Below, piece after piece: positions 1-7,432 of a stretch of DNA of 7,432 nt. The notes under the pieces are model-generated. The model was not told the origin of the DNA. It made no database searches and saw only the letters and a list, made by a program, of their open reading frames with translations. The DNA is from an archaeon (GTDB lineage Archaea > Iainarchaeota > Iainarchaeia > Iainarchaeales > CSSED10-239), in NCBI GenBank assembly GCA_035387745.1, contig DAOOON010000031.1, forward strand, positions 1 to 7,432, in the 5' to 3' direction. Numbering within the stretch: position 1 is the stretch's first letter; each line of letters starts with the position of its first letter. Both the position numbers and the translations under genes were made by a program.

Positions 1-511
1 TTGCTGTTGGTGGCCAAAAAGTGCTAACAATATTACAACCGCTTACATCAATAACTTCTTTTGGGCAAGCGCCGTTTGTTAAAGTTATATTATCTATATC
101 TTCAATATCAATATCCACTAAAGAATTTTGATCCCCTCTATTAACAGTAAAATTTGTGTCTGTTGAAAGATATGCAGTTTCTCCTGCTTCTACTATTTTA
201 TTAAAACTTCCAGAAACATTTCCATTAATTATTAGTTGTAAATTAAATAACCTAATATCTGAATTATTCATTAAAACAAGTCTTACTGTTTTAGTAGTAC
301 TATAGATTGTACAAGAATCAACATAAAATTGCGCATTTGAGCATTCTAAATCGCTTGCTGCTTTTAGCTCTGCTGTAACTTGGTCCATTTTTGTCTTTGC
401 CGAGTTTCTTGACCACGCAAAGAAAAGACTAGCAAGAATTACTACAATTACTATTAATAACGTTACACTAATAATCTCAGAAATCCCTTTTCTTGATTTT
501 AATCTAAACAT
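1..511 (-). CDS. Archaeal type IV pilin-like protein with class III signal peptide (3'-partial; C-terminus lies beyond the window start)
   Basis: Not in the supplied ORF track because it runs off the window. My translation from the ATG at 511..509(-) is MFRLKSRKGISEIISVTLLIVIVVILASLFFAWSRNSAKTKMDQVTAELKAASDLECSNAQFYVDSC..., and it stays open to position 1. The N-terminus is a short basic leader, then KG|ISEII, then about 20 hydrophobic residues ending in AW. This matches the archaeal pilin/archaellin N-terminal pattern (Pilin_N / DUF1628-type). A GGTGA Shine-Dalgarno-like site sits at 520..516(-), 4 nt upstream of the ATG. The ATG overlaps the TAA stop of the upstream gene (TAATG). Confidence 0.75.
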   Translation of the reverse strand, partial: MFRLKSRKGISEIISVTLLIVIVVILASLFFAWSRNSAKTKMDQVTAELKAASDLECSNAQFYVDSCTIYSTTKTVRLVLMNNSDIRLFNLQLIINGNVSGSFNKIVEAGETAYLSTDTNFTVNRGDQNSLVDIDIEDIDNITLTNGACPKEVIDVSGCNIVSTFWPPTA

Positions 512-1752
512 TATTTCACCAAATTATTTGCTTTAATTTTAAATTCTTTAGCTATCCCTTTTTCTACCAAAAATAAATAGATGGTTGTTGTAATGTTTGT
601 TATTAATATTACTAAAAATACAACCGCCACAAGCTTATTTGTAAAGTCATTAATAATTCCTATACTTATGGGATATGTTGCAAGTACTGCAGCTGCTAGG
701 CCTCTAGCATGAAGAGCAGAAATAATATTTTGGTCTGTTTTATTAAGGCTTTTTGAAAACAATAATTTTGCTGCAAGAATTCTAACAATTATTAAAACAA
801 CAATCAAGCCTAACGAGATTAAAATCGTTTCAAGAGAAATAATTGTAAGGTCAATTATTATTCCAAGATACACAAAGAAAAAAGTCTTAATTAATAATGA
901 AATTTCTGTCTGGAAATGAGACATGCTTTTTTCCATAGTAAATTCTTTCATCTTAAATGCTTTTAGAATTGTTGAAGCATTACCTAGAACTAATCCAAAG
1001 ATTAATGCACAGAATGCTCCGTTTCCATTTAGATATTCTGTCGCTACATATAATAAAAATAAAAAAGCTAAAGTAAGAAGATAATCAAAGTCTTTTGTTT
1101 CTGTATAGTCTCTTAATACTTTTATCCAGATTAACCCTCCAACTAGACCAATAACAGTAGCTATAGCAAATGCAGAAAATATGCCCTGAGCTATATTTGT
1201 TGCGTTTATTGATTGAGAAACAATTAACCCTGCAATTGTTATTGTTGCGACAACACAAAAAACATCTGTCATTGCTGATTCTAATGTCAGTATTATTCTG
1301 GTTTTTTCACCTGCACTTGATCTTGTAACTAATGGAATTACTATTGCAGAACTAGTACCGCCAATAATTGATCCTGCAAGAAACCCAAATATCCATTCTA
1401 CTCCAAAAACATAATGTAAAAATACACCACTAATTCCTGCAGTAAATAAAAATATTAAAATTGTGAAAATAAATGAATTTTTTATTTCGTTGACAACTTT
1501 ATTAAAATTTAAGCACAATCCACCATCAAACAATAAAATAATTAATGCAACTGCTGCAAATATTGGAGTAAAAGATTTTAATAGTTCAACAATATTAATC
1601 GGTATTAAATGAAATATTGGCCCTAAAAGCATACCAACAAATATTAAAATTAAAATATCAGATATCTTGGTTTTCTTAAAAAAAATATTTCCAAAAAAGC
1701 CAAGTAAGAATATTCCGGACATCAATAACAAAAACAGAAGTGTATTTACCAT
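511..1752 (-). CDS. Cation:proton antiporter, CPA superfamily (Na+/H+ exchanger fold); membrane domain only, no RCK/TrkA-type regulatory domain
   Basis: A 413-aa ORF that is hydrophobic throughout (about 11-13 predicted TM segments). The N-terminus GNIFFKKTKISDILILIFVGMLLGP resembles the Na_H_Exchanger family start. LLFDGGL, GGTSSAIVIPL (TM4-like) and TLESAMTDV (TM5-like) fall at the expected relative positions of the CPA ion-binding motifs. Confidence 0.88.
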   Translation of the reverse strand: MVNTLLFLLLMSGIFLLGFFGNIFFKKTKISDILILIFVGMLLGPIFHLIPINIVELLKSFTPIFAAVALIILLFDGGLCLNFNKVVNEIKNSFIFTILIFLFTAGISGVFLHYVFGVEWIFGFLAGSIIGGTSSAIVIPLVTRSSAGEKTRIILTLESAMTDVFCVVATITIAGLIVSQSINATNIAQGIFSAFAIATVIGLVGGLIWIKVLRDYTETKDFDYLLTLAFLFLLYVATEYLNGNGAFCALIFGLVLGNASTILKAFKMKEFTMEKSMSHFQTEISLLIKTFFFVYLGIIIDLTIISLETILISLGLIVVLIIVRILAAKLLFSKSLNKTDQNIISALHARGLAAAVLATYPISIGIINDFTNKLVAVVFLVILITNITTTIYLFLVEKGIAKEFKIKANNLVK

Positions 1753-1857
1753 AATTTATCTCTAATTTTTTATTTTTAATAAAATATATGTTAGTAAATT
1801 ATTTTATAAACTTAACTAAAAATATATAATATAGGGCAATTAGGAGAAATAGATAAT
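1753..1857. promoter_or_regulatory. Divergent intergenic promoter region (antiporter to the left, DAC operon to the right)
   Basis: A 105-nt, very AT-rich spacer. It has two aaaatatat boxes (1781..1789 and 1819..1827) and ttttataaa (1802..1810) as candidate archaeal TATA elements. An AGGAG Shine-Dalgarno site at 1842..1846 lies 11 nt upstream of the ATG at 1858. Transcription start sites cannot be determined from sequence alone. Confidence 0.4.
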
Positions 1858-2568
1858 ATGGTCGAAAAAAAACATAATGCAAACTTAAACAAAAAAGTTA
1901 TTTCTACAGTTACACAAATTGTAAACGGAATGGCAAACAAGAAAAAAGGTTCTTTTTTTATAATAAGTAAATCTGATATTTCTAATAAATATGAAAGACT
2001 TTATCCTGATCTTTTTTCAAATAAGAAAGTAAGTATTTTTAAAAAAGAAACACAAACACTTCTGATAGCTCTTTTAGAACTTGATGGTGCAATTGTTGTG
2101 GATAATTCTGGTTATATAGTAGATTATGGCGTAAAGGTTAAAAAAACAAAAATACTTTTGGGACATGGAACAAGACATTCTGCTGCTAGAGGGATTTCTT
2201 GTTTTCCTAATGTTTTATCAATTATTTCTTCAGAAGAAGATGGAAAGGTTAGATTATTTAGGAATGGAGAAATGGTTGCAGAGATTAATCCAAAAATGGG
2301 TAAATCCAAACTGTTCTTTGAAAGAGTAGGAGAATTATTTTCTAAACCAGAATTACAAGTAGCAACTGCTGGCGGAGTTGCTTCTTTACTTTTAAGAGTA
2401 AATCCTTGGTTTGCAGGTATTATCTTTACTGGTTCATGGATAGTTACAAAATATGGGCTAGTAAGTCTACAGGATTTTCTAAGAACAGGGCATTTGGTTG
2501 TTAAGAAACAAACAAAAGAAATAAAAAAACAAATTAAAAAGAATAGAAATGCAAGAGCCAAAAAATAA
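1858..2568 (+). CDS. Diadenylate cyclase (DAC / DisA_N) domain protein with a C-terminal hydrophobic segment and basic tail
   Basis: A 236-aa ORF with an AGGAG RBS. By eye it aligns to the CdaA/DisA DAC core at four points. KKGSFFIIS matches K-x-GALIVI. LDGAIVVDNSGYIVDYG is the DGA motif (nt 2083..2091). GHGTRHSAARGIS corresponds to GTRHRAA-x-GIS, so the RHR position reads RHS (nt 2173..2181). IISSEEDGKVRLFRNGE matches VVSEETG-x-IS-x-x-x-G. Residues 167-199 are hydrophobic, consistent with one or two TM segments or a re-entrant hairpin. The tail KKQTKEIKKQIKKNRNARAKK is strongly basic. Confidence 0.8.
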   Translation: MVEKKHNANLNKKVISTVTQIVNGMANKKKGSFFIISKSDISNKYERLYPDLFSNKKVSIFKKETQTLLIALLELDGAIVVDNSGYIVDYGVKVKKTKILLGHGTRHSAARGISCFPNVLSIISSEEDGKVRLFRNGEMVAEINPKMGKSKLFFERVGELFSKPELQVATAGGVASLLLRVNPWFAGIIFTGSWIVTKYGLVSLQDFLRTGHLVVKKQTKEIKKQIKKNRNARAKK

Positions 2569-2992
2569 AGTTACAGAAGTATCTTCTGGAATTATTAACT
2601 CTTTTATTAGAATTACAAAAAAAACAATAATTTTTGGAATTATTATTCCCGGAGTAATTTATTTAATTATTAGATTTTTAGAAATTGCTTTTGGTTATTC
2701 CTGGCAAGATCAACTGATTTTCCAATATATTTCTTATATTTATGGTATTGGTTATATTGCGTTTTTAACTTACAAAGCAGTTGCTGGTCAAATTCACACA
2801 ACGATTTATTATTCAATTGGTTGGATTTTAGGGTTATTATTGTTATTTAGATTTGGAGTATTTAATTTACAGGACTTTCTAAACATCTTGCTTATTCCAA
2901 CTATATTTGTAATTCTAAAAATAATATATTTGATATTTAGAAAACCAACAAAAATAATAAGAAAAGAAAGTATTAGAAGACGTAGCCCTTAG
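2549..2992 (+). CDS. Hypothetical 4-TM membrane protein, translationally coupled to the DAC gene
   Basis: A 147-aa ORF. Its only ATG (2549) lies 20 nt inside the 3' end of the DAC gene. There are four clear hydrophobic segments (about residues 26-44, 56-74, 84-100 and 112-130) and a basic C-terminal tail. No obvious independent SD site is present, which fits coupled translation. I recognise no family. Confidence 0.6.
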   Translation: MQEPKNKVTEVSSGIINSFIRITKKTIIFGIIIPGVIYLIIRFLEIAFGYSWQDQLIFQYISYIYGIGYIAFLTYKAVAGQIHTTIYYSIGWILGLLLLFRFGVFNLQDFLNILLIPTIFVILKIIYLIFRKPTKIIRKESIRRRSP

Positions 2993-5237
2993 AATTTATT
3001 CTTACGTGTCTTTGTAGTCTTCTTTGGCTAATTCCTAGTTCTGCTAATTCTTTATAACCATAGCCGGCTTTTATTAGTTGGTCTGGGCTGTAGCCTGCCT
3101 TATATAGTTCTTTTGCAGAAAAGCCAAGAGGTTTTAGTTCCTTTGCAGAATATCTTATAACTCTTAATTGTCTAGCTTTTAGACCTAATTTCCAAACATC
3201 TTTTGCAGGAAAGCCAGCATAATATAGTTCTCGTGGATAAAAGCCAACATCATGTAACTCTTTTGCTGAATATCCAGCATCCCTTAAAGAAGCAGAATCA
3301 AAGCCTGCATATCTAAGCTCTTTAGCAGAATATGCTTTCTTTAAATCATAGGCACTATAGCTTGCTGCTCTCATTTCTTTAGCAGAATAACCGGCCTTTG
3401 CAAACTCTATAACATCGATATCAAGATCAGCTAGTTCTTTTGCAGAATAACCTGCATCTTTTATGACCTTTAGATCAAAACCTGCAAAATAAAGCTCTCT
3501 TGCAGTAAAACCAAGATTATGAAATTGATTTGCAGAATAACCAATACCAAGAAGTTCTTTAGCATCAAACTCTGCATCTCTTAAATCATATAAACTATAG
3601 CCCGCCAAATGAATCTCAAGAGCAGAAAAACCAGCTTTCTTTAGTTCTTTTGCAGAGTAACCTTTCGCAATAAACTCTGGCAGCTCACAACCGCAAAGTC
3701 TTATTTCAGATAAAGAACAACCAGCATCCATTAATTGTGAACAAGAAAGACCTGCTTGAGATAATTCTTTTGTAGTAAAACCAGAGAAATATAATTCTGC
3801 AGGAGAATATCCAAACAACAGTAAATCTTTAGCAGAATAATTAAGATATCTTAAATCCTCTAAACTAAATTCTTCTTTTTTCTCTTGATTTGTTAAAAGA
3901 TCTCTTAGTTCAAAGATTTCTATAAGCTTATAGCCTGCTTCTTTTAAATCTCTTACAGAATAACCAGCTCTATACATGTCTCTTGCAGAGATTCCTGCTT
4001 CTCTTAATTGTTTTAAGGTTACACCTAATGGTACTAATTCTTTAATTCTAAAGCCTTCTTTTAAAAGATCAGAAACTGTTATGCCTTCATCAAGTAAATC
4101 TTGAATATTTATCTTTTCTTTGTCTACTAAATCTAGAAGGGTGTAGCCTGCAAGTAATAGTTCACTAACTGTGTATGCTTTTTTTAGGTCTTCAAGAGTA
4201 TAACCTGCTTCAATTAATTCATTTGCTTTATAGCCTGCAATCTTTAATTTCTTTACAGGAATATTTAGCTTATATAGGTCTTTTGCAGGATATTGTGCAT
4301 AAGCAACCACGTCTTCGCTGAATTTAGCTTTTAGTAAATCTTTTGCTGAATAACCTGTGTCTTTTAGTTCTTTAGCTGAATAACCTGCTCTTTTAAGTTC
4401 TGTTAAAGTATATTTTGCATTTCTTAACTCTTGAGCAGAAAACCCTAAAGTAAAAAGATACATTGAACTAAATTTCATTTTCTTTAGTCTTGTTGCAGTG
4501 TATTTTGCTTTTTTTAGTCTTTTATGATTATAACCTAATTGTAATAATTTCTTTGCTGGTGTTTTTTTTCTTAAAAGCTCAGACAAAGTTATTTTCTTTT
4601 TTTTTATAGGCTTTTTTATTGTTATTTTTTGGGGTTTTTCTTTTTTTTCTTCTTTAAATCCTAGTGTTTTTATTTCTGCAGCTGTAAAACCTGCTTTTTT
4701 AAGATCCGTGAATGTATATTTCAGCCCAGAGAATATTGTTCGATTTGCTTTAGCTTTCTGTAGATCTTTAGCAAATCTAATGATACTTATTTTTTTCTTT
4801 CTTAGTAATGATATATCAATTGGCGAGATAATAAATTTCTTTGGAGAATTAAGCTGTTTATTTAGCTTTTCTATTATCTCTTTTTTATTTAGACTAGCGG
4901 TTGCTTTTTTTTCTTTTAAAACAGGTTTTTGTGGAATTGTTTCTTTTACTTTTTTTGGCTCATTTAATGAAAAACCTAATTTTTTTAATTCCAGATTATT
5001 AAAACCTGCATTTTTTAAGTCTTTAAGAGTGTATTTTAAACCTAAGAATATAGTATAATTTGCTTTAACTTTCTGTAAATCTTTTGCATATCTATTAATA
5101 CTTATTTTTTTCTTTCTTAGTAATGATATATCAATTGGTGAGATAATAAATTTCTTTGGAGAATTAAGCTGTTTATTTAGCTTTTCTATTATCTCTTTTT
5201 TAGTTAAACTAACTGTTGCTTTTTTTATTTTTTTCAT
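2973..5237 (-). CDS. Large decapeptide-repeat protein of unknown family, with a duplicated Lys-rich N-terminal module and no signal peptide
   Basis: An uninterrupted 754-aa ORF. The N-terminus MKKIKKATVSLTKKEIIEKL has no hydrophobic leader and there are no TM segments. Residues 7-216 are two tandem 105-aa modules. Residues ~217-740 are about 50 ten-residue units with consensus L-x-x-A-G-[YF]-S-A-K-[ED]. The repeat periodicity is maintained at the protein level while codons have diverged, which argues for a genuine, selected coding sequence. Confidence 0.9.
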   Translation of the reverse strand: MKKIKKATVSLTKKEIIEKLNKQLNSPKKFIISPIDISLLRKKKISINRYAKDLQKVKANYTIFLGLKYTLKDLKNAGFNNLELKKLGFSLNEPKKVKETIPQKPVLKEKKATASLNKKEIIEKLNKQLNSPKKFIISPIDISLLRKKKISIIRFAKDLQKAKANRTIFSGLKYTFTDLKKAGFTAAEIKTLGFKEEKKEKPQKITIKKPIKKKKITLSELLRKKTPAKKLLQLGYNHKRLKKAKYTATRLKKMKFSSMYLFTLGFSAQELRNAKYTLTELKRAGYSAKELKDTGYSAKDLLKAKFSEDVVAYAQYPAKDLYKLNIPVKKLKIAGYKANELIEAGYTLEDLKKAYTVSELLLAGYTLLDLVDKEKINIQDLLDEGITVSDLLKEGFRIKELVPLGVTLKQLREAGISARDMYRAGYSVRDLKEAGYKLIEIFELRDLLTNQEKKEEFSLEDLRYLNYSAKDLLLFGYSPAELYFSGFTTKELSQAGLSCSQLMDAGCSLSEIRLCGCELPEFIAKGYSAKELKKAGFSALEIHLAGYSLYDLRDAEFDAKELLGIGYSANQFHNLGFTARELYFAGFDLKVIKDAGYSAKELADLDIDVIEFAKAGYSAKEMRAASYSAYDLKKAYSAKELRYAGFDSASLRDAGYSAKELHDVGFYPRELYYAGFPAKDVWKLGLKARQLRVIRYSAKELKPLGFSAKELYKAGYSPDQLIKAGYGYKELAELGISQRRLQRHVRINSKGYVF
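3018..4589 (-). repeat. Intragenic 30-nt (decapeptide) tandem repeat array, about 50 units
   Basis: On the + strand the unit recurs imperfectly as ...agttcttttgcagaataacctgc..., which is the reverse complement of A-G-Y-S-A-K-E-L. A hydrophobic residue falls at exactly every 10th position across four runs: residues 221-351 (14 units), 381-441 (7), 462-632 (18) and 641-741 (11). There are only about four register shifts in more than 520 residues. Confidence 0.9.
4590..5219 (-). repeat. Tandem duplication of a 315-nt (105-aa) N-terminal module
   Basis: Residues 7-111 (nt 4905..5219) and 112-216 (nt 4590..4904) align without gaps. The core 4783..4887 versus 5098..5202 is 105 nt with a single synonymous mismatch (TCG/TCA Ser) and encodes the identical peptide KKEIIEKLNKQLNSPKKFIISPIDISLLRKKKISI. 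Similarity decays towards the C-terminal end of each module. Confidence 0.92.
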
Positions 5238-5418
5238 ATTTTTCTCTCTCTTAAAAATATTAACTAAATCCGGTTATTTGTTATATATGTTATGTATGAA
5301 AAGCTTTATAATCTTAAGGCAAAAGAAAGCTTTATATACTGTTTTTAAAATAGATATATATAAGGCTTAAATCTTAAGCTAAACCATTTCTATTACAAAA
5401 AATAAGGGGGTAAAATAA
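5238..5418. promoter_or_regulatory. Divergent intergenic promoter region (repeat-protein gene to the left, small membrane protein gene to the right)
   Basis: A 181-nt AT-rich spacer. It has two gaaa(a)gctttata boxes (5298..5310 and 5325..5337) that resemble purine-rich BRE plus TTTATA TATA elements. A further atatatataa stretch lies at 5354..5363. On the minus strand, catatataac (reverse complement of 5281..5290) is a candidate TATA for the repeat-protein gene. Transcription start sites were not determined. Confidence 0.4.
5404..5411 (+). promoter_or_regulatory. Shine-Dalgarno ribosome-binding site
   Basis: aagggggt, with the G-run at 5406..5410 lying 8 nt upstream of the ATG at 5419. It differs by one mismatch from AGGAGGT. 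Confidence 0.7.
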
Positions 5419-5769
5419 ATGGCAAAAAAAGAAACAAAAATAGGAGCTTATATATTTATTGCAGGAATTGTAATTGCAATAATTTCAGGCATATTAATGA
5501 ATTTTATAAGTCCAGTAGTAATTACATCTTTGTTAATGATACTTGGTCTAATTGTAGGATTCTTAAATATAACAGACAAAGAAGTTAAAGACTACTTACT
5601 TACAGCAGTGTGTCTTGTAATTGTTACATCTCTTGGGGGGGCATCAATACAAAATTTAATGATTATTGGTCCTTACTTAGCAGGAGTATTACACGCAATT
5701 ATGATATTCACAATACCTGCTACAATAGTAGTTGCATTAAAAGAAATAATTTCTATAGCTAAAAACTAA
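5419..5769 (+). CDS. Small hypothetical integral membrane protein (about 4 TM)
   Basis: A 116-aa ORF with a strong SD at optimal spacing. It has a short basic N-terminus (MAKKETK) followed by four hydrophobic segments, and an oligo-T tract follows the gene. I recognise no family. Confidence 0.75.
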   Translation: MAKKETKIGAYIFIAGIVIAIISGILMNFISPVVITSLLMILGLIVGFLNITDKEVKDYLLTAVCLVIVTSLGGASIQNLMIIGPYLAGVLHAIMIFTIPATIVVALKEIISIAKN

Positions 5770-5780
5770 AGAAATTTATT

Positions 5781-5800
5781 CTTTTTTCTTTTTCTTATTT
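5781..5800 (+). terminator. Oligo-T tract, candidate archaeal-type terminator for the 5419..5769 gene
   Basis: cttttttctttttcttattt contains a T6 and a T5 run and begins 12 nt after the stop codon. Archaeal RNA polymerase terminates at oligo-T stretches. Confidence 0.4.
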
Positions 5801-5821
5801 TATTCTAAAACTAGTTTTACT

Positions 5822-7432
5822 TTATTCTACAGTTACTGATTTTGCAAGATTTCTTGGTTGATCAATAGCACAGTCTTTAAAGTCTGCTATATAATAAGCT
5901 AGAAGTTGCATTGGTATAACATTAACAAAAGGCGTTAAATTTGAGCAGGTTATTGGAACAAAAATAACATGATCGCATAATTTCTCTATCTCTTCATCTC
6001 CTTGAGTAGCTATTGCTATGATACTTGCCCCTCTTGCCTTTGCCTCATGTATGTTAGATAAAACTTTATCATAGTTTAAATCACTGTTGGCAATAACTAC
6101 AACAGGCAAGCCCTTGTCAATTAAAGCAATCGGACCGTGCTTCATCTCTGCTGCTGGATAGCCTTCTGCGTGAATATAAGATATTTCTTTTAGTTTTAGG
6201 GCGCCTTCTAAAGCGATTGGATAATTTATTCCTCGTCCAAGATATAGTGTGTTTTTACAAATGTAATATTTTTTTGCAATTTCTTTTATTTTTTCTTCAT
6301 TTTCTTTTTTTAACTCTGCTCTTATTATGTGGGGTAATTCTAAAAGATTATTTATTAATTTTTTAGCGCCGGAGTCATCTATACTCCCGATAATTCTACC
6401 AAGATATAGGGTTAAAAGATTCAAACAAACTAGTTGGCTGGTAAATGCTTTTGTTGAAGCAACACCTATTTCTGGTCCTGCTCTAATATATATACCACCA
6501 TCACATTCTCTAGCAATTGTTGAACCAACAACATTAACAATACCAATTACTTTTGCACCTTTTTTCTTTGCTTCTCTAACTGCTGCAAGAGTGTCTGCTG
6601 TTTCTCCTGATTGACTTATTGCTATAATTAAAGTATTATTATCAATTATTGGATTTCTATATCTAAACTCAGAAGCATAATCAACTTCTACTGGAATTCT
6701 TAAAAAACCTTCCATAGAAAACTTTGCGACAAGACCACAATGCCAGGAGGTACCACAAGCAACAATAATTATTCTTTTTATATTTTTTATTTGCTCTGTA
6801 GTTAGGTTAATACCACCCAATTTTGCAGTATTATTCTCAAAATCAATTCTTCCTAAGATTGCTTGCTTTATAGTTTCTGGTTGCTCATGTATTTCTTTTA
6901 ACATAAAATGTTTATAGCCTTGCTTTTCTATTTCTTCTAGATTTGTTTCTATTTCTATGGTTTCTTTATCTAAAGTTATATTGTCAAGAGATGTAATTTC
7001 ACAACCACCATTAATACAAGCCATTTCATTATCTTCTAAATACATTACTTTCTTTGTGTGTTCAATTATTGCAGAAACATCGCTTGCCACAAAATATTCG
7101 CAATCTCCAATTCCAATAACTATTGGAGAACCGCGCCTAGCAACAATAAGTTCTTTACCTTGCTTATCTATAACTACAATACCAAAAGTACCCACAACTT
7201 TCTTTAAGGCCTTTTGAACTGCTTTTTTTAAGTCTCCTGAATAAAACTTCTCAATTAAGTGTGCTAATACTTCGGTGTCTGTTTCAGACTTGAAAACATG
7301 CCCTTCTTTTTCTAGAAATTTCTTTAAAGTTTCGAAGTTTTCAATTATACCATTATGTACTAATGCAATTTCTGTTTTACAATCAGTATGTGGGTGAGCA
7401 TTAATTACAGTAGGTTCTCCGTGTGTTGCCCA
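5822..7432 (-). CDS. glmS: Glutamine--fructose-6-phosphate aminotransferase (isomerising), 5'-partial (about the first 70 residues lie beyond the window end)
   Basis: The reading frame stays open upstream of the ATG at 7195 in the ORF track, all the way to 7432. My translation from 7432 is WATHGEPTVINAHPHTDCKTEIALVHNGIIENFETLKKFLEKEGHVFKSETDTEVLAHLIEKF..., which is the class II glutaminase domain (the WATHG motif is near residue 75 in characterised GlmS). Two SIS domains follow, with the hallmark motifs CGTSWHCGL, ASEFRYRNP and SQSGETADTLAA. The protein ends with the canonical GlmS C-terminus DQPRNLAKSVTVE. Confidence 0.97.
   Translation of the reverse strand, partial: WATHGEPTVINAHPHTDCKTEIALVHNGIIENFETLKKFLEKEGHVFKSETDTEVLAHLIEKFYSGDLKKAVQKALKKVVGTFGIVVIDKQGKELIVARRGSPIVIGIGDCEYFVASDVSAIIEHTKKVMYLEDNEMACINGGCEITSLDNITLDKETIEIETNLEEIEKQGYKHFMLKEIHEQPETIKQAILGRIDFENNTAKLGGINLTTEQIKNIKRIIIVACGTSWHCGLVAKFSMEGFLRIPVEVDYASEFRYRNPIIDNNTLIIAISQSGETADTLAAVREAKKKGAKVIGIVNVVGSTIARECDGGIYIRAGPEIGVASTKAFTSQLVCLNLLTLYLGRIIGSIDDSGAKKLINNLLELPHIIRAELKKENEEKIKEIAKKYYICKNTLYLGRGINYPIALEGALKLKEISYIHAEGYPAAEMKHGPIALIDKGLPVVVIANSDLNYDKVLSNIHEAKARGASIIAIATQGDEEIEKLCDHVIFVPITCSNLTPFVNVIPMQLLAYYIADFKDCAIDQPRNLAKSVTVE

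Follow-up and report, generated by a model that had tools for sequence, protein, structure and literature searches.

To our knowledge, archaeal signaling by cyclic di-AMP (c-di-AMP) has been studied experimentally only in a few euryarchaea with diadenylate cyclases (DACs) of the DacZ/CdaZ type. DacZ of Haloferax volcanii synthesizes c-di-AMP in vitro and in vivo (PMC6741144). In the same species, dacZ forms an operon with mscS2, and an antiporter responds to c-di-AMP depletion (PMC6741144, PMC12699388). Reviews describe the RHR stretch of DACs as a conserved motif (PMC8573169), and RHR-to-AAA mutants, in which all three residues are altered, are inactive (PMC3328451, PMC13022847). Single mutants have shown that the Asp of the DGA motif and the first Arg of RHR are essential in Leptospira CdaA (D172A and R203A; PMC12974146) and in PanS (D68A and R105A; preprint 10.64898/2026.08.10.743972). 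Here we analyze a DAC gene of a different layout, open reading frame (ORF) A, and the gene that overlaps its 3' end, ORF B. Both lie in a stretch of 7,432 nucleotides, hereafter the window, from an archaeon of the Iainarchaeota (assembly GCA_035387745.1, contig DAOOON010000031.1, positions 1 to 7,432 of the forward strand). An initial annotation, made from the letters of the window, had described the two genes as a unit composed of an atypical c-di-AMP synthase and a protein with four transmembrane (TM) helices.

ORF A is probably a functional housekeeping c-di-AMP synthase of this DPANN archaeon and a member of a widespread archaeal DAC family. In the ORF listing of the window, ORF A (236 aa) and ORF B (147 aa) were both found where the initial annotation had placed them, in the same orientation, and the 20-nt overlap that it reported can be read from the start and stop codons (Table 1). 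The identity of the catalytic domain is clear. Pfam family PF02457 (DisA_N), the check suggested for this gene, matches residues 22-138 (E=1.3e-13), scoring 51.1 bits where the gathering score is 27 and covering profile positions 4-118 of 119. When ORF A was compared with PDB sequences by phmmer, it aligned with CdaA of B. subtilis and L. monocytogenes motif by motif (DGA with DGA, GTRHSAA with GTRHRAA, and SSEEDG with VSEETG). This bears out the DAC core recognized at the outset (DGA, GTRH-S-AARGIS, and SSEEDG), and the DGA, RHS, and SSEE codons stand at the positions first given for them. ORF A thus keeps G104-T105-R106-H107, aligned with the GTRH of CdaA and including the first Arg and the His of RHR, and has the phosphate- and metal-binding Ser-Glu-Glu motif as S125-E126-E127. 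The residues known to be essential singly in other DACs, the Asp of DGA and the first Arg, are present as D76 and R106.

Structure prediction gave the same identity. The AlphaFold2 (AF2) model of ORF A has a predicted local distance difference test (pLDDT) score of ~90 across residues 10-165, and Foldseek matched it to CdaA, DacA, and CdaM catalytic domains with E values down to 6e-9 and a target-normalized TM-score of ~0.7. The 50 best Foldseek matches listed are all labeled CdaA, DacA, DacM, CdaM, or diadenylate cyclase. The DAC fold begins at about residue 10, almost at the N-terminus as had been claimed, and is preceded by no TM helix, hydrophobic segment, or additional domain. A WD40 identity for the DAC core was considered and rejected, as this top-ranked match arose from a summed phmmer score against the designed or natural repeat protein 2ymu made up of many weak matches, none of which passes singly. 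The segment concerned, HSAARGIS...SSEEDGKVRLF (window 2200-2260, residues ~107-135), does contain a stretch, SSEEDGKVRLF, that resembles the WD repeat SASDDKTVKLW, and this resemblance could mislead automated annotation.

Conservation across the family indicates that the DAC domain is not degenerate. D76, G77, G104, H107, and S125 never vary across an alignment of 73 family members, R106 is present in 71 sequences, and E126 and E127 in 68 each, at a mean column identity of only 28%. A near-invariant active site on so divergent a background points to purifying selection of the catalytic residues and reads as the signature of a working active site.

The family to which ORF A belongs is broad within the archaea. 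We searched 5.8 billion proteins for homologs of ORF A and ORF B. For ORF A, this returned 78 clusters at 90% identity, 129-262 aa in length and mostly 207-262 aa, all of which contain PF02457; the few named clusters are labeled "archaeon" or "Candidatus (I)ainarchaeum". When GTDB species genomes were scanned, proteins of this layout turned up in Iainarchaeota/Diapherotrites, Micrarchaeota, Marsarchaeota, and Methanoperedens. From 1.84 billion representatives at 50% identity, an exhaustive profile search (E up to 0.001) recovered 2,670 DAC relatives, and among the best 150 of these, ~55-60 proteins of 190-260 aa match the profile through the C-terminal module. Family members share a DAC domain starting from the N-terminus, a helical linker of ~25 residues, an uncharged Gly/Ala/Pro-rich run with a central Pro, and a basic tail. 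ORF A shows every hallmark of this group, namely a length of ~190-260 aa, DGA at residues ~60-95, R-H-[SAG], and an uncharged Gly/Ala/Pro-rich C-terminal run with F-x-G-S-[YW]. Databases name these proteins "diadenylate cyclase" or "DisA nucleotide-binding domain protein".

The initial annotation had stated that the architecture matches no described class. This agrees with the NCBIfam models for CdaA, DisA, CdaS, CdaM, and DacZ, on all of which ORF A scores far below the cutoff, but the protein is not unique, as its family extends across several archaeal phyla. Further uncharacterized archaeal DAC architectures are reportedly listed by Corrigan and Gründling in 2013 (DacV, DacW, and DacX) and by Galperin in 2023 (22 DAC families), and the family of ORF A may already be among them. 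Literature searches for a DAC with a C-terminal TM segment in DPANN archaea or Methanoperedens, and for the DacV/W/X architectures, returned nothing relevant.

ORF A lacks the second Arg of RHR, having Ser108 instead, and it had been proposed that this change may alter or abolish catalysis. The distribution of residues at this position argues otherwise. Among the best 150 profile matches, the third position of RHR is occupied by 16 different residues (S, A, G, I, M, L, V, Y, T, H, Q, W, E, N, C, and R). In the family alignment, 68 of 73 sequences have Ser or Ala there and none has Arg, and in the 38 archaeal family members called in the loci that we fetched, R-H is followed by Ser, Ala, or Gly and never by Arg (0/38). 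Sequences of the DacZ type without the second Arg have RHM, RHI, or RHL. One of them, a Halobacteriales DacZ (Candidatus Hikarchaeum) with Met at this position, is matched end to end by the DacZ equivalog model at 426.5 bits, against a cutoff of 430. As judged from these alignments, a Ser where RHR would have its second Arg falls within the normal variation of the family and is no lesion, the second Arg is not truly a defining feature of the DAC superfamily, and it appears dispensable in nature. It is reasonable to expect that ORF A is active as an enzyme. PDB entry 9g69 (292 aa), considered as a possible DacZ, has RHR in its canonical form and did not decide the matter for DacZ.

The string GTRHSAAL also recurs in bacterial DACs that have different architectures (L042-L072), among them DACs of Saccharibacteria, WWE3, Planctomycetota, and Acidobacteriota. 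Examples from WWE3, Saccharibacteria, and other bacteria of the candidate phyla radiation are ~490 aa long, their DAC lying at about residue 180, and those from Acidobacteriota and Thermoanaerobaculia are ORFs of more than 1,300 aa. The bacterial loci were collected by means of that very pattern, so they show its recurrence and say nothing of its frequency.

The C-terminal part of ORF A had been described as a hydrophobic segment (residues ~167-199) followed by a poly-basic tail. Both are present and the hydrophobic module is conserved, with the family motif P-x4-6-F-x-G-S-[YW]-x3-[KR] and with F190, G192, S193, and G211 invariant in an alignment of 33 sequences. Its role as an anchor is marginal in ORF A (Hessa sum +4.6) and clearer in relatives. 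Across the 73 family members, the longest uncharged run has a median of 33 residues, Kyte-Doolittle (KD) hydropathy is at least 1.6 in 53 of 73, and the tail is net positive. Methanoperedens members have modules that are more hydrophobic than that of ORF A (Hessa +1.7 to +2.8). In four members (P0127, P0140, P0147, and P0162; 260-292 aa), the Gly/Ala-rich module is followed by two extra, clear TM helices (Hessa sum -1.9 to 0), from which at least part of the family is predicted to be unambiguously integral to the membrane. A further member, P0098 (321 aa), has an N-terminal extension of ~100 aa instead of extra TM helices. Since the DAC must face cytoplasmic ATP, and given the basic tail and the ~33-residue run with a central Pro, we infer that the module is a membrane-interface element, for instance a kinked helix or in-in hairpin, and less likely an anchor that crosses the membrane once. 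Its strong conservation suggests an additional specific role, such as dimerization or regulation.

These features can be combined into a model of how ORF A would function. Two DAC domains, arranged head to head, would condense two ATP into c-di-AMP by means of D76, R106/H107, and S125/E127, as homology predicts. The C-terminal module would probably keep the enzyme on the cytoplasmic side of the membrane, which is the weakest link of the model for ORF A; the basic tail would lie on lipid head groups, and the module may also promote or gate dimerization. In the clade of the window, ORF B would share a transcript with the DAC gene, possibly with translational coupling. A housekeeping role is indicated because the neighbors of the DAC gene vary between clades and are ordinary (Kae1/Bud32, DapF, YchF-type GTPase, and SecDF, identified by eye; a cation/proton antiporter (CPA) and GlmS, identified by family scan), with no match to defense or phage families.

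Several observations weigh against the view of ORF A as a working, membrane-held synthase. The module of ORF A is weakly hydrophobic (best 19-mer Hessa sum +4.6, KD 1.19-1.34), scoring worse than any of ~20 true TM helices of neighboring genes (Hessa -2.9 to +3.3), and it contains Arg180 where most family members carry Gly. AF2 confidence was low for the module in both runs (pLDDT 31-76) and was still ~50-70 in the second run, which used the deeper 73-sequence alignment. Part of the module is modeled as a beta-hairpin, not as a TM helix, the predicted shape being two short helices broken at N182-P183 and then a low-confidence hairpin. Conservation this high is odd for a simple anchor, and the module could instead be a soluble regulatory or oligomerization element. 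With respect to catalysis, the argument from haloarchaeal DacZ uses the near-equivalog of Candidatus Hikarchaeum and not the H. volcanii sequence, and our literature search for single-residue mutagenesis of the second Arg turned up only triple mutants and first-Arg mutants. We found no experimental or biochemical work on any member of the family.

A more ambitious interpretation, which we offer only tentatively, gives the module a larger part. With its Gly/Ala-rich helix, its Pro, and then F-x-G-S-[YW]-x3-K, it could be an undescribed membrane-embedded regulatory and dimerization element that defines a new archaeal DAC class (in DPANN lineages, Marsarchaeota, and Methanoperedens) and makes c-di-AMP synthesis respond directly to membrane tension, lipid packing, or potential, with the variable 4-TM protein tuning this coupling in the lineage of the window.

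Hydrophobicity analysis of ORF B found four hydrophobic helices and no extramembrane or soluble domain, in keeping with the original description of a 4-TM protein without room for a nucleotide sensor. ORF B is a real, conserved gene that belongs to a lineage-restricted orphan family, with only 32 homolog clusters recovered by profile search from the 5.8 billion proteins. Its invariant residues are F43, I46, F48, G49, W52, Y88, G91, W92, G95, and P117, which fall in the motifs RF[LI]EI[AS]FG[YF][SA]W and Y-x2-GW-x-LG and at P117. Scans against Pfam, NCBIfam, PADLOC, and PHROGs gave no meaningful match.

The initial annotation favored ORF B as a dedicated regulator of a membrane-tethered DAC, in the manner of CdaA and CdaR. 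The invariant motifs of ORF B and the close coupling of the two genes are consistent with this, and there are precedents for an operon of a DAC and a membrane protein in CdaA-CdaR and dacZ-mscS2 (PMC8573169, PMC6741144). In the window and the five relatives in which both genes were called (L001-L005), the junction between DAC and ORF B ranges from a 23-nt overlap to an 8-nt gap. However, outside the window the block of CPA antiporter, DAC, 4-TM protein, decapeptide-repeat protein, small TM protein, and GlmS keeps its synteny only in six close relatives (DAC at least 74% identical). Because the whole 7-kb block is syntenic in these genomes, the adjacency of the two genes does not stand out from the background synteny. 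In the next clade (L076 and L077, DAC ~60% identical), ORF B homologs are still within ~1 kb of the DAC gene, but an opposite-strand PAP2 gene lies between the two, so they do not form one operon there. At all other DAC loci examined in Iainarchaeota, Micrarchaeota, Marsarchaeota, and Methanoperedens, we found no ORF B homolog, and the most divergent ORF B homolog has no DAC within ~3-5 kb. Near that homolog, L073 contains a gene with a mechanosensitive-channel N-terminal domain (PF05552; 4536-5207, forward strand), noted here only because Haloferax co-transcribes dacZ with mscS2.

The phylogenies of the two genes also conflict. ORF B occurs as two types that are 35-42% identical, type A in the window and L004-L006 and type B in L001-L003. 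This division conflicts with the flanking DAC and decapeptide genes, which place the window with L001 and L002 at 83-91% identity. The pattern suggests allelic replacement by recombination, or diversifying selection, at the ORF B gene alone. Milder mosaicism is seen elsewhere in the block; between L004 and L006, TM116 is 96% identical and DAC 69%. In L006, tblastn splits the DAC gene (~5281-5906) into two fragments that overlap but lie in different frames (query residues 7-43 and 28-216). This suggests a frameshift, to be ascribed either to an assembly error or to a pseudogene. The C-terminal module of the DAC is nearly invariant among the genomes in which ORF B types vary, and since those types are also incongruent with the DAC tree, ORF B and DAC do not appear to be co-evolving. 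The DAC family is present in several phyla and the 32 ORF B clusters in one lineage, and ORF B has no extramembrane domain capable of sensing. A dedicated regulator is therefore unlikely, and the proposed pairing of the genes largely fails to hold across genomes. On the sequence comparisons, ORF B is best described as a lineage-specific, co-transcribed membrane protein that is neither a conserved nor a co-evolving partner of the DAC, although it may be a local accessory factor.

Another explanation is that loss of the second Arg has left ORF A a catalytically dead or repurposed DAC-like protein, such as a nucleotide sensor or scaffold. It draws on the inactivity of the RHR-to-AAA mutants and on the description of RHR as conserved, both cited above. 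Those mutants also lose the first Arg and the His, each of them critical by itself and each kept in ORF A, whereas the third position varies naturally and is Met in the near-equivalog of the active haloarchaeal DacZ type. With the other catalytic residues essentially invariant at the low column identity of the family, we regard a dead enzyme as improbable.

The second proposal of the initial annotation, that DAC and ORF B are an antiviral pair resembling PanDA, CBASS, or Pycsar, with a DAC signal that controls ORF B as a toxic membrane effector, has a bacterial precedent in the DAC and TM-effector system PanS/PanE (preprint 10.64898/2026.08.10.743972), a weak partial match of ORF A to an NCBIfam model of a DAC-containing "anti-phage protein" (E=1.5e-4, 20 bits against a cutoff of 630), and the allele-like divergence of ORF B in its favor, but it is highly improbable, as neither protein matches PADLOC or PHROGs, the neighboring housekeeping genes are stably syntenic and include no mobile-element or defense gene, GC content does not dip relative to the surroundings, PanS is a bare DAC of ~150 aa and PanE has a beta-barrel ligand domain whereas ORF A has its module and ORF B no nucleotide-binding soluble domain, and the DAC family is distributed vertically across archaeal phyla without ORF B.

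The remaining genes of the window (Table 1; GC content ~29%) bear on the DAC in varying degrees. The divergent antiporter, in which no RCK_C/TrkA_C domain was detected with Pfam or NCBIfam and which is syntenic in the close clade only, would fit a link of c-di-AMP to ion and osmotic homeostasis, a circumstantial and loose parallel with H. volcanii. The glmS gene is 3 kb from the DAC gene on the other strand, and this proximity is probably coincidental. An apparent truncation of GlmS, with loss of the glutaminase domain, was considered and rejected, as the frame runs past the end of the window and the GlmS of L002 is full-length and starts MCGISAYFGKK. The decapeptide-repeat protein, which consists almost wholly of such repeats, is unusual for a DPANN archaeon. 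It has a strong partial match to the repeat region of DotG/IcmE type IVB secretion proteins (398.9 bits against a cutoff of 750), its N-terminal ~75 aa are duplicated nearly verbatim (residues ~5-80 and ~101-176), and it is 68-86% identical in the syntenic close relatives. Its gene has a convergent 20-nt overlap with the 3' end of ORF B. Neither an Rfam scan nor a search for tandem repeats in the window gave anything bearing on the DAC or ORF B.

Table 1. Features of the window, with positions counted from its first letter.
Feature	Positions	Strand	Details and basis
Cation/proton antiporter, Na_H_Exchanger family, K+/H+-antiporter-like	511..1752	-	Divergent from ORF A; family scans
AGGAG, Shine-Dalgarno-like (putative)	1842..1846	+	11 nt upstream of ORF A ATG; read from sequence
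ORF A, putative diadenylate cyclase of the archaeal family with N-terminal DAC and C-terminal hydrophobic module	1858..2568	+	Pfam, PDB phmmer, AF2/Foldseek, family searches
DAC (DisA_N) catalytic domain, residues 22-138	1921..2271	+	Pfam match; AF2 fold ~residues 10-165
DGA motif D76-G77-A78, gat-ggt-gca	2083..2091	+	D and G invariant in 73/73 family members; aligns with CdaA DGA
R106-H107-S108 at the RHR position, aga-cat-tct	2173..2181	+	R 71/73, H 73/73; third residue S 46, A 22, R 0
S124-S125-E126-E127	2227..2238	+	Aligns with CdaA S222-E223-E224 region; S125 73/73, E126/E127 68/73
Gly/Ala/Pro-rich hydrophobic C-terminal module, residues ~165-203, ...ATAGGVASLLLRVNPWFAGIIFTGSWIVTKYGLVS	2350..2466	+	Conserved in family; putative membrane-association or dimerization element
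Lys/Arg-rich C-terminal tail, residues 212-236	2491..2565	+	Net charge ~+11; sequence and length differ among relatives
ORF A/ORF B overlap	2549..2568	+	20 nt; ORF B ATG at 2549, ORF A stop 2566-2568
ORF B, four TM helices, basic termini, loops ~10 aa or less	2549..2992	+	Hydrophobicity analysis, homolog alignment
Decapeptide-repeat protein, 754 aa	2973..5237	-	PF25296, E=2.4e-129, 12 stretches
GlmS ORF	5822..7432	-	Frame continues beyond window end

In other clades the DAC gene has different neighbors. By eye, the Methanoperedens neighbors are DapF and a UbiE-type methyltransferase, and other loci have a YchF-type GTPase or SecDF. Kae1 and Bud32 are usually adjacent or fused in archaea. In nine genomes of Micrarchaeia (L014-L022) they are split by the DAC gene, which lies at ~6001-6687 between Kae1 (upstream, 332 aa) and the Bud32 kinase (downstream, ~205 aa, overlapping by 4 nt or abutting); both identities were assigned by eye from sequence.

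If our view of ORF A as a functional synthase is right, its family would be the c-di-AMP synthase of several little-known lineages (Iainarchaeota, Micrarchaeota, Marsarchaeota, and the methane-oxidizing Methanoperedens), with a regulatory logic inverted relative to the known classes, the catalytic domain coming first and the conserved hydrophobic module last. A characterized member could tell how an essential osmoregulatory messenger is controlled in very small archaeal cells, and whether the textbook "RHR" should be read as "RH-x". This is not a new kind of system, as databases already label the proteins diadenylate cyclases and the two-gene unit is not conserved.

Compared with the described classes, ORF A is closest in structure to CdaA/DacA. 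The two share the DAC fold and its motifs, CdaA/DacA domains are the best structural matches, and ORF A is presumably likewise membrane-associated, with a housekeeping role in ion or osmotic balance likely. CdaA differs in having three N-terminal TM helices, whereas the module of ORF A is C-terminal and much weaker, and in having RHR rather than RHS; ORF A also has no cdaR (YbbR) or glmM neighbors, and it scores 44.2 bits on the CdaA model TIGR00159 against a cutoff of 188.8. DisA consists of a DAC, a helical linker, and a C-terminal helix-hairpin-helix (HhH) domain, while ORF A has no HhH or DisA-linker Pfam match at E up to 1. CdaS has N-terminal autoinhibitory helices and CdaM one N-terminal TM helix, in contrast to ORF A, which has no N-terminal extension and reaches 25.2 bits on NF038328 and 19 bits on NF038327, the CdaS/CdaM models, each with a cutoff of 225. 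PanS/PanE resembles the locus in placing a DAC without an N-terminal regulatory domain beside a gene for a small membrane protein. That system is bacterial, however, and occurs in defense islands and mobile elements, with a bare DAC of ~150 aa and a PanE of two TM helices with a ligand-binding beta-barrel, compared with the 236 aa of ORF A including its module and the four TM helices of ORF B. The closest partial match among NCBIfam models is DacZ (NF041371, 51.8 bits against a cutoff of 430), and it covers the DAC part only. DacZ/CdaZ, the type characterized in H. volcanii and Methanocaldococcus jannaschii, is archaeal like ORF A and likewise without the second Arg of RHR, and in H. volcanii the dacZ transcript includes the membrane-protein gene mscS2 (PMC6741144). 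Its architecture is nevertheless the reverse of that of ORF A, as a PK_C-like (DUF5912) regulatory domain stands at the N-terminus, the DAC is C-terminal, and there is no hydrophobic tail.

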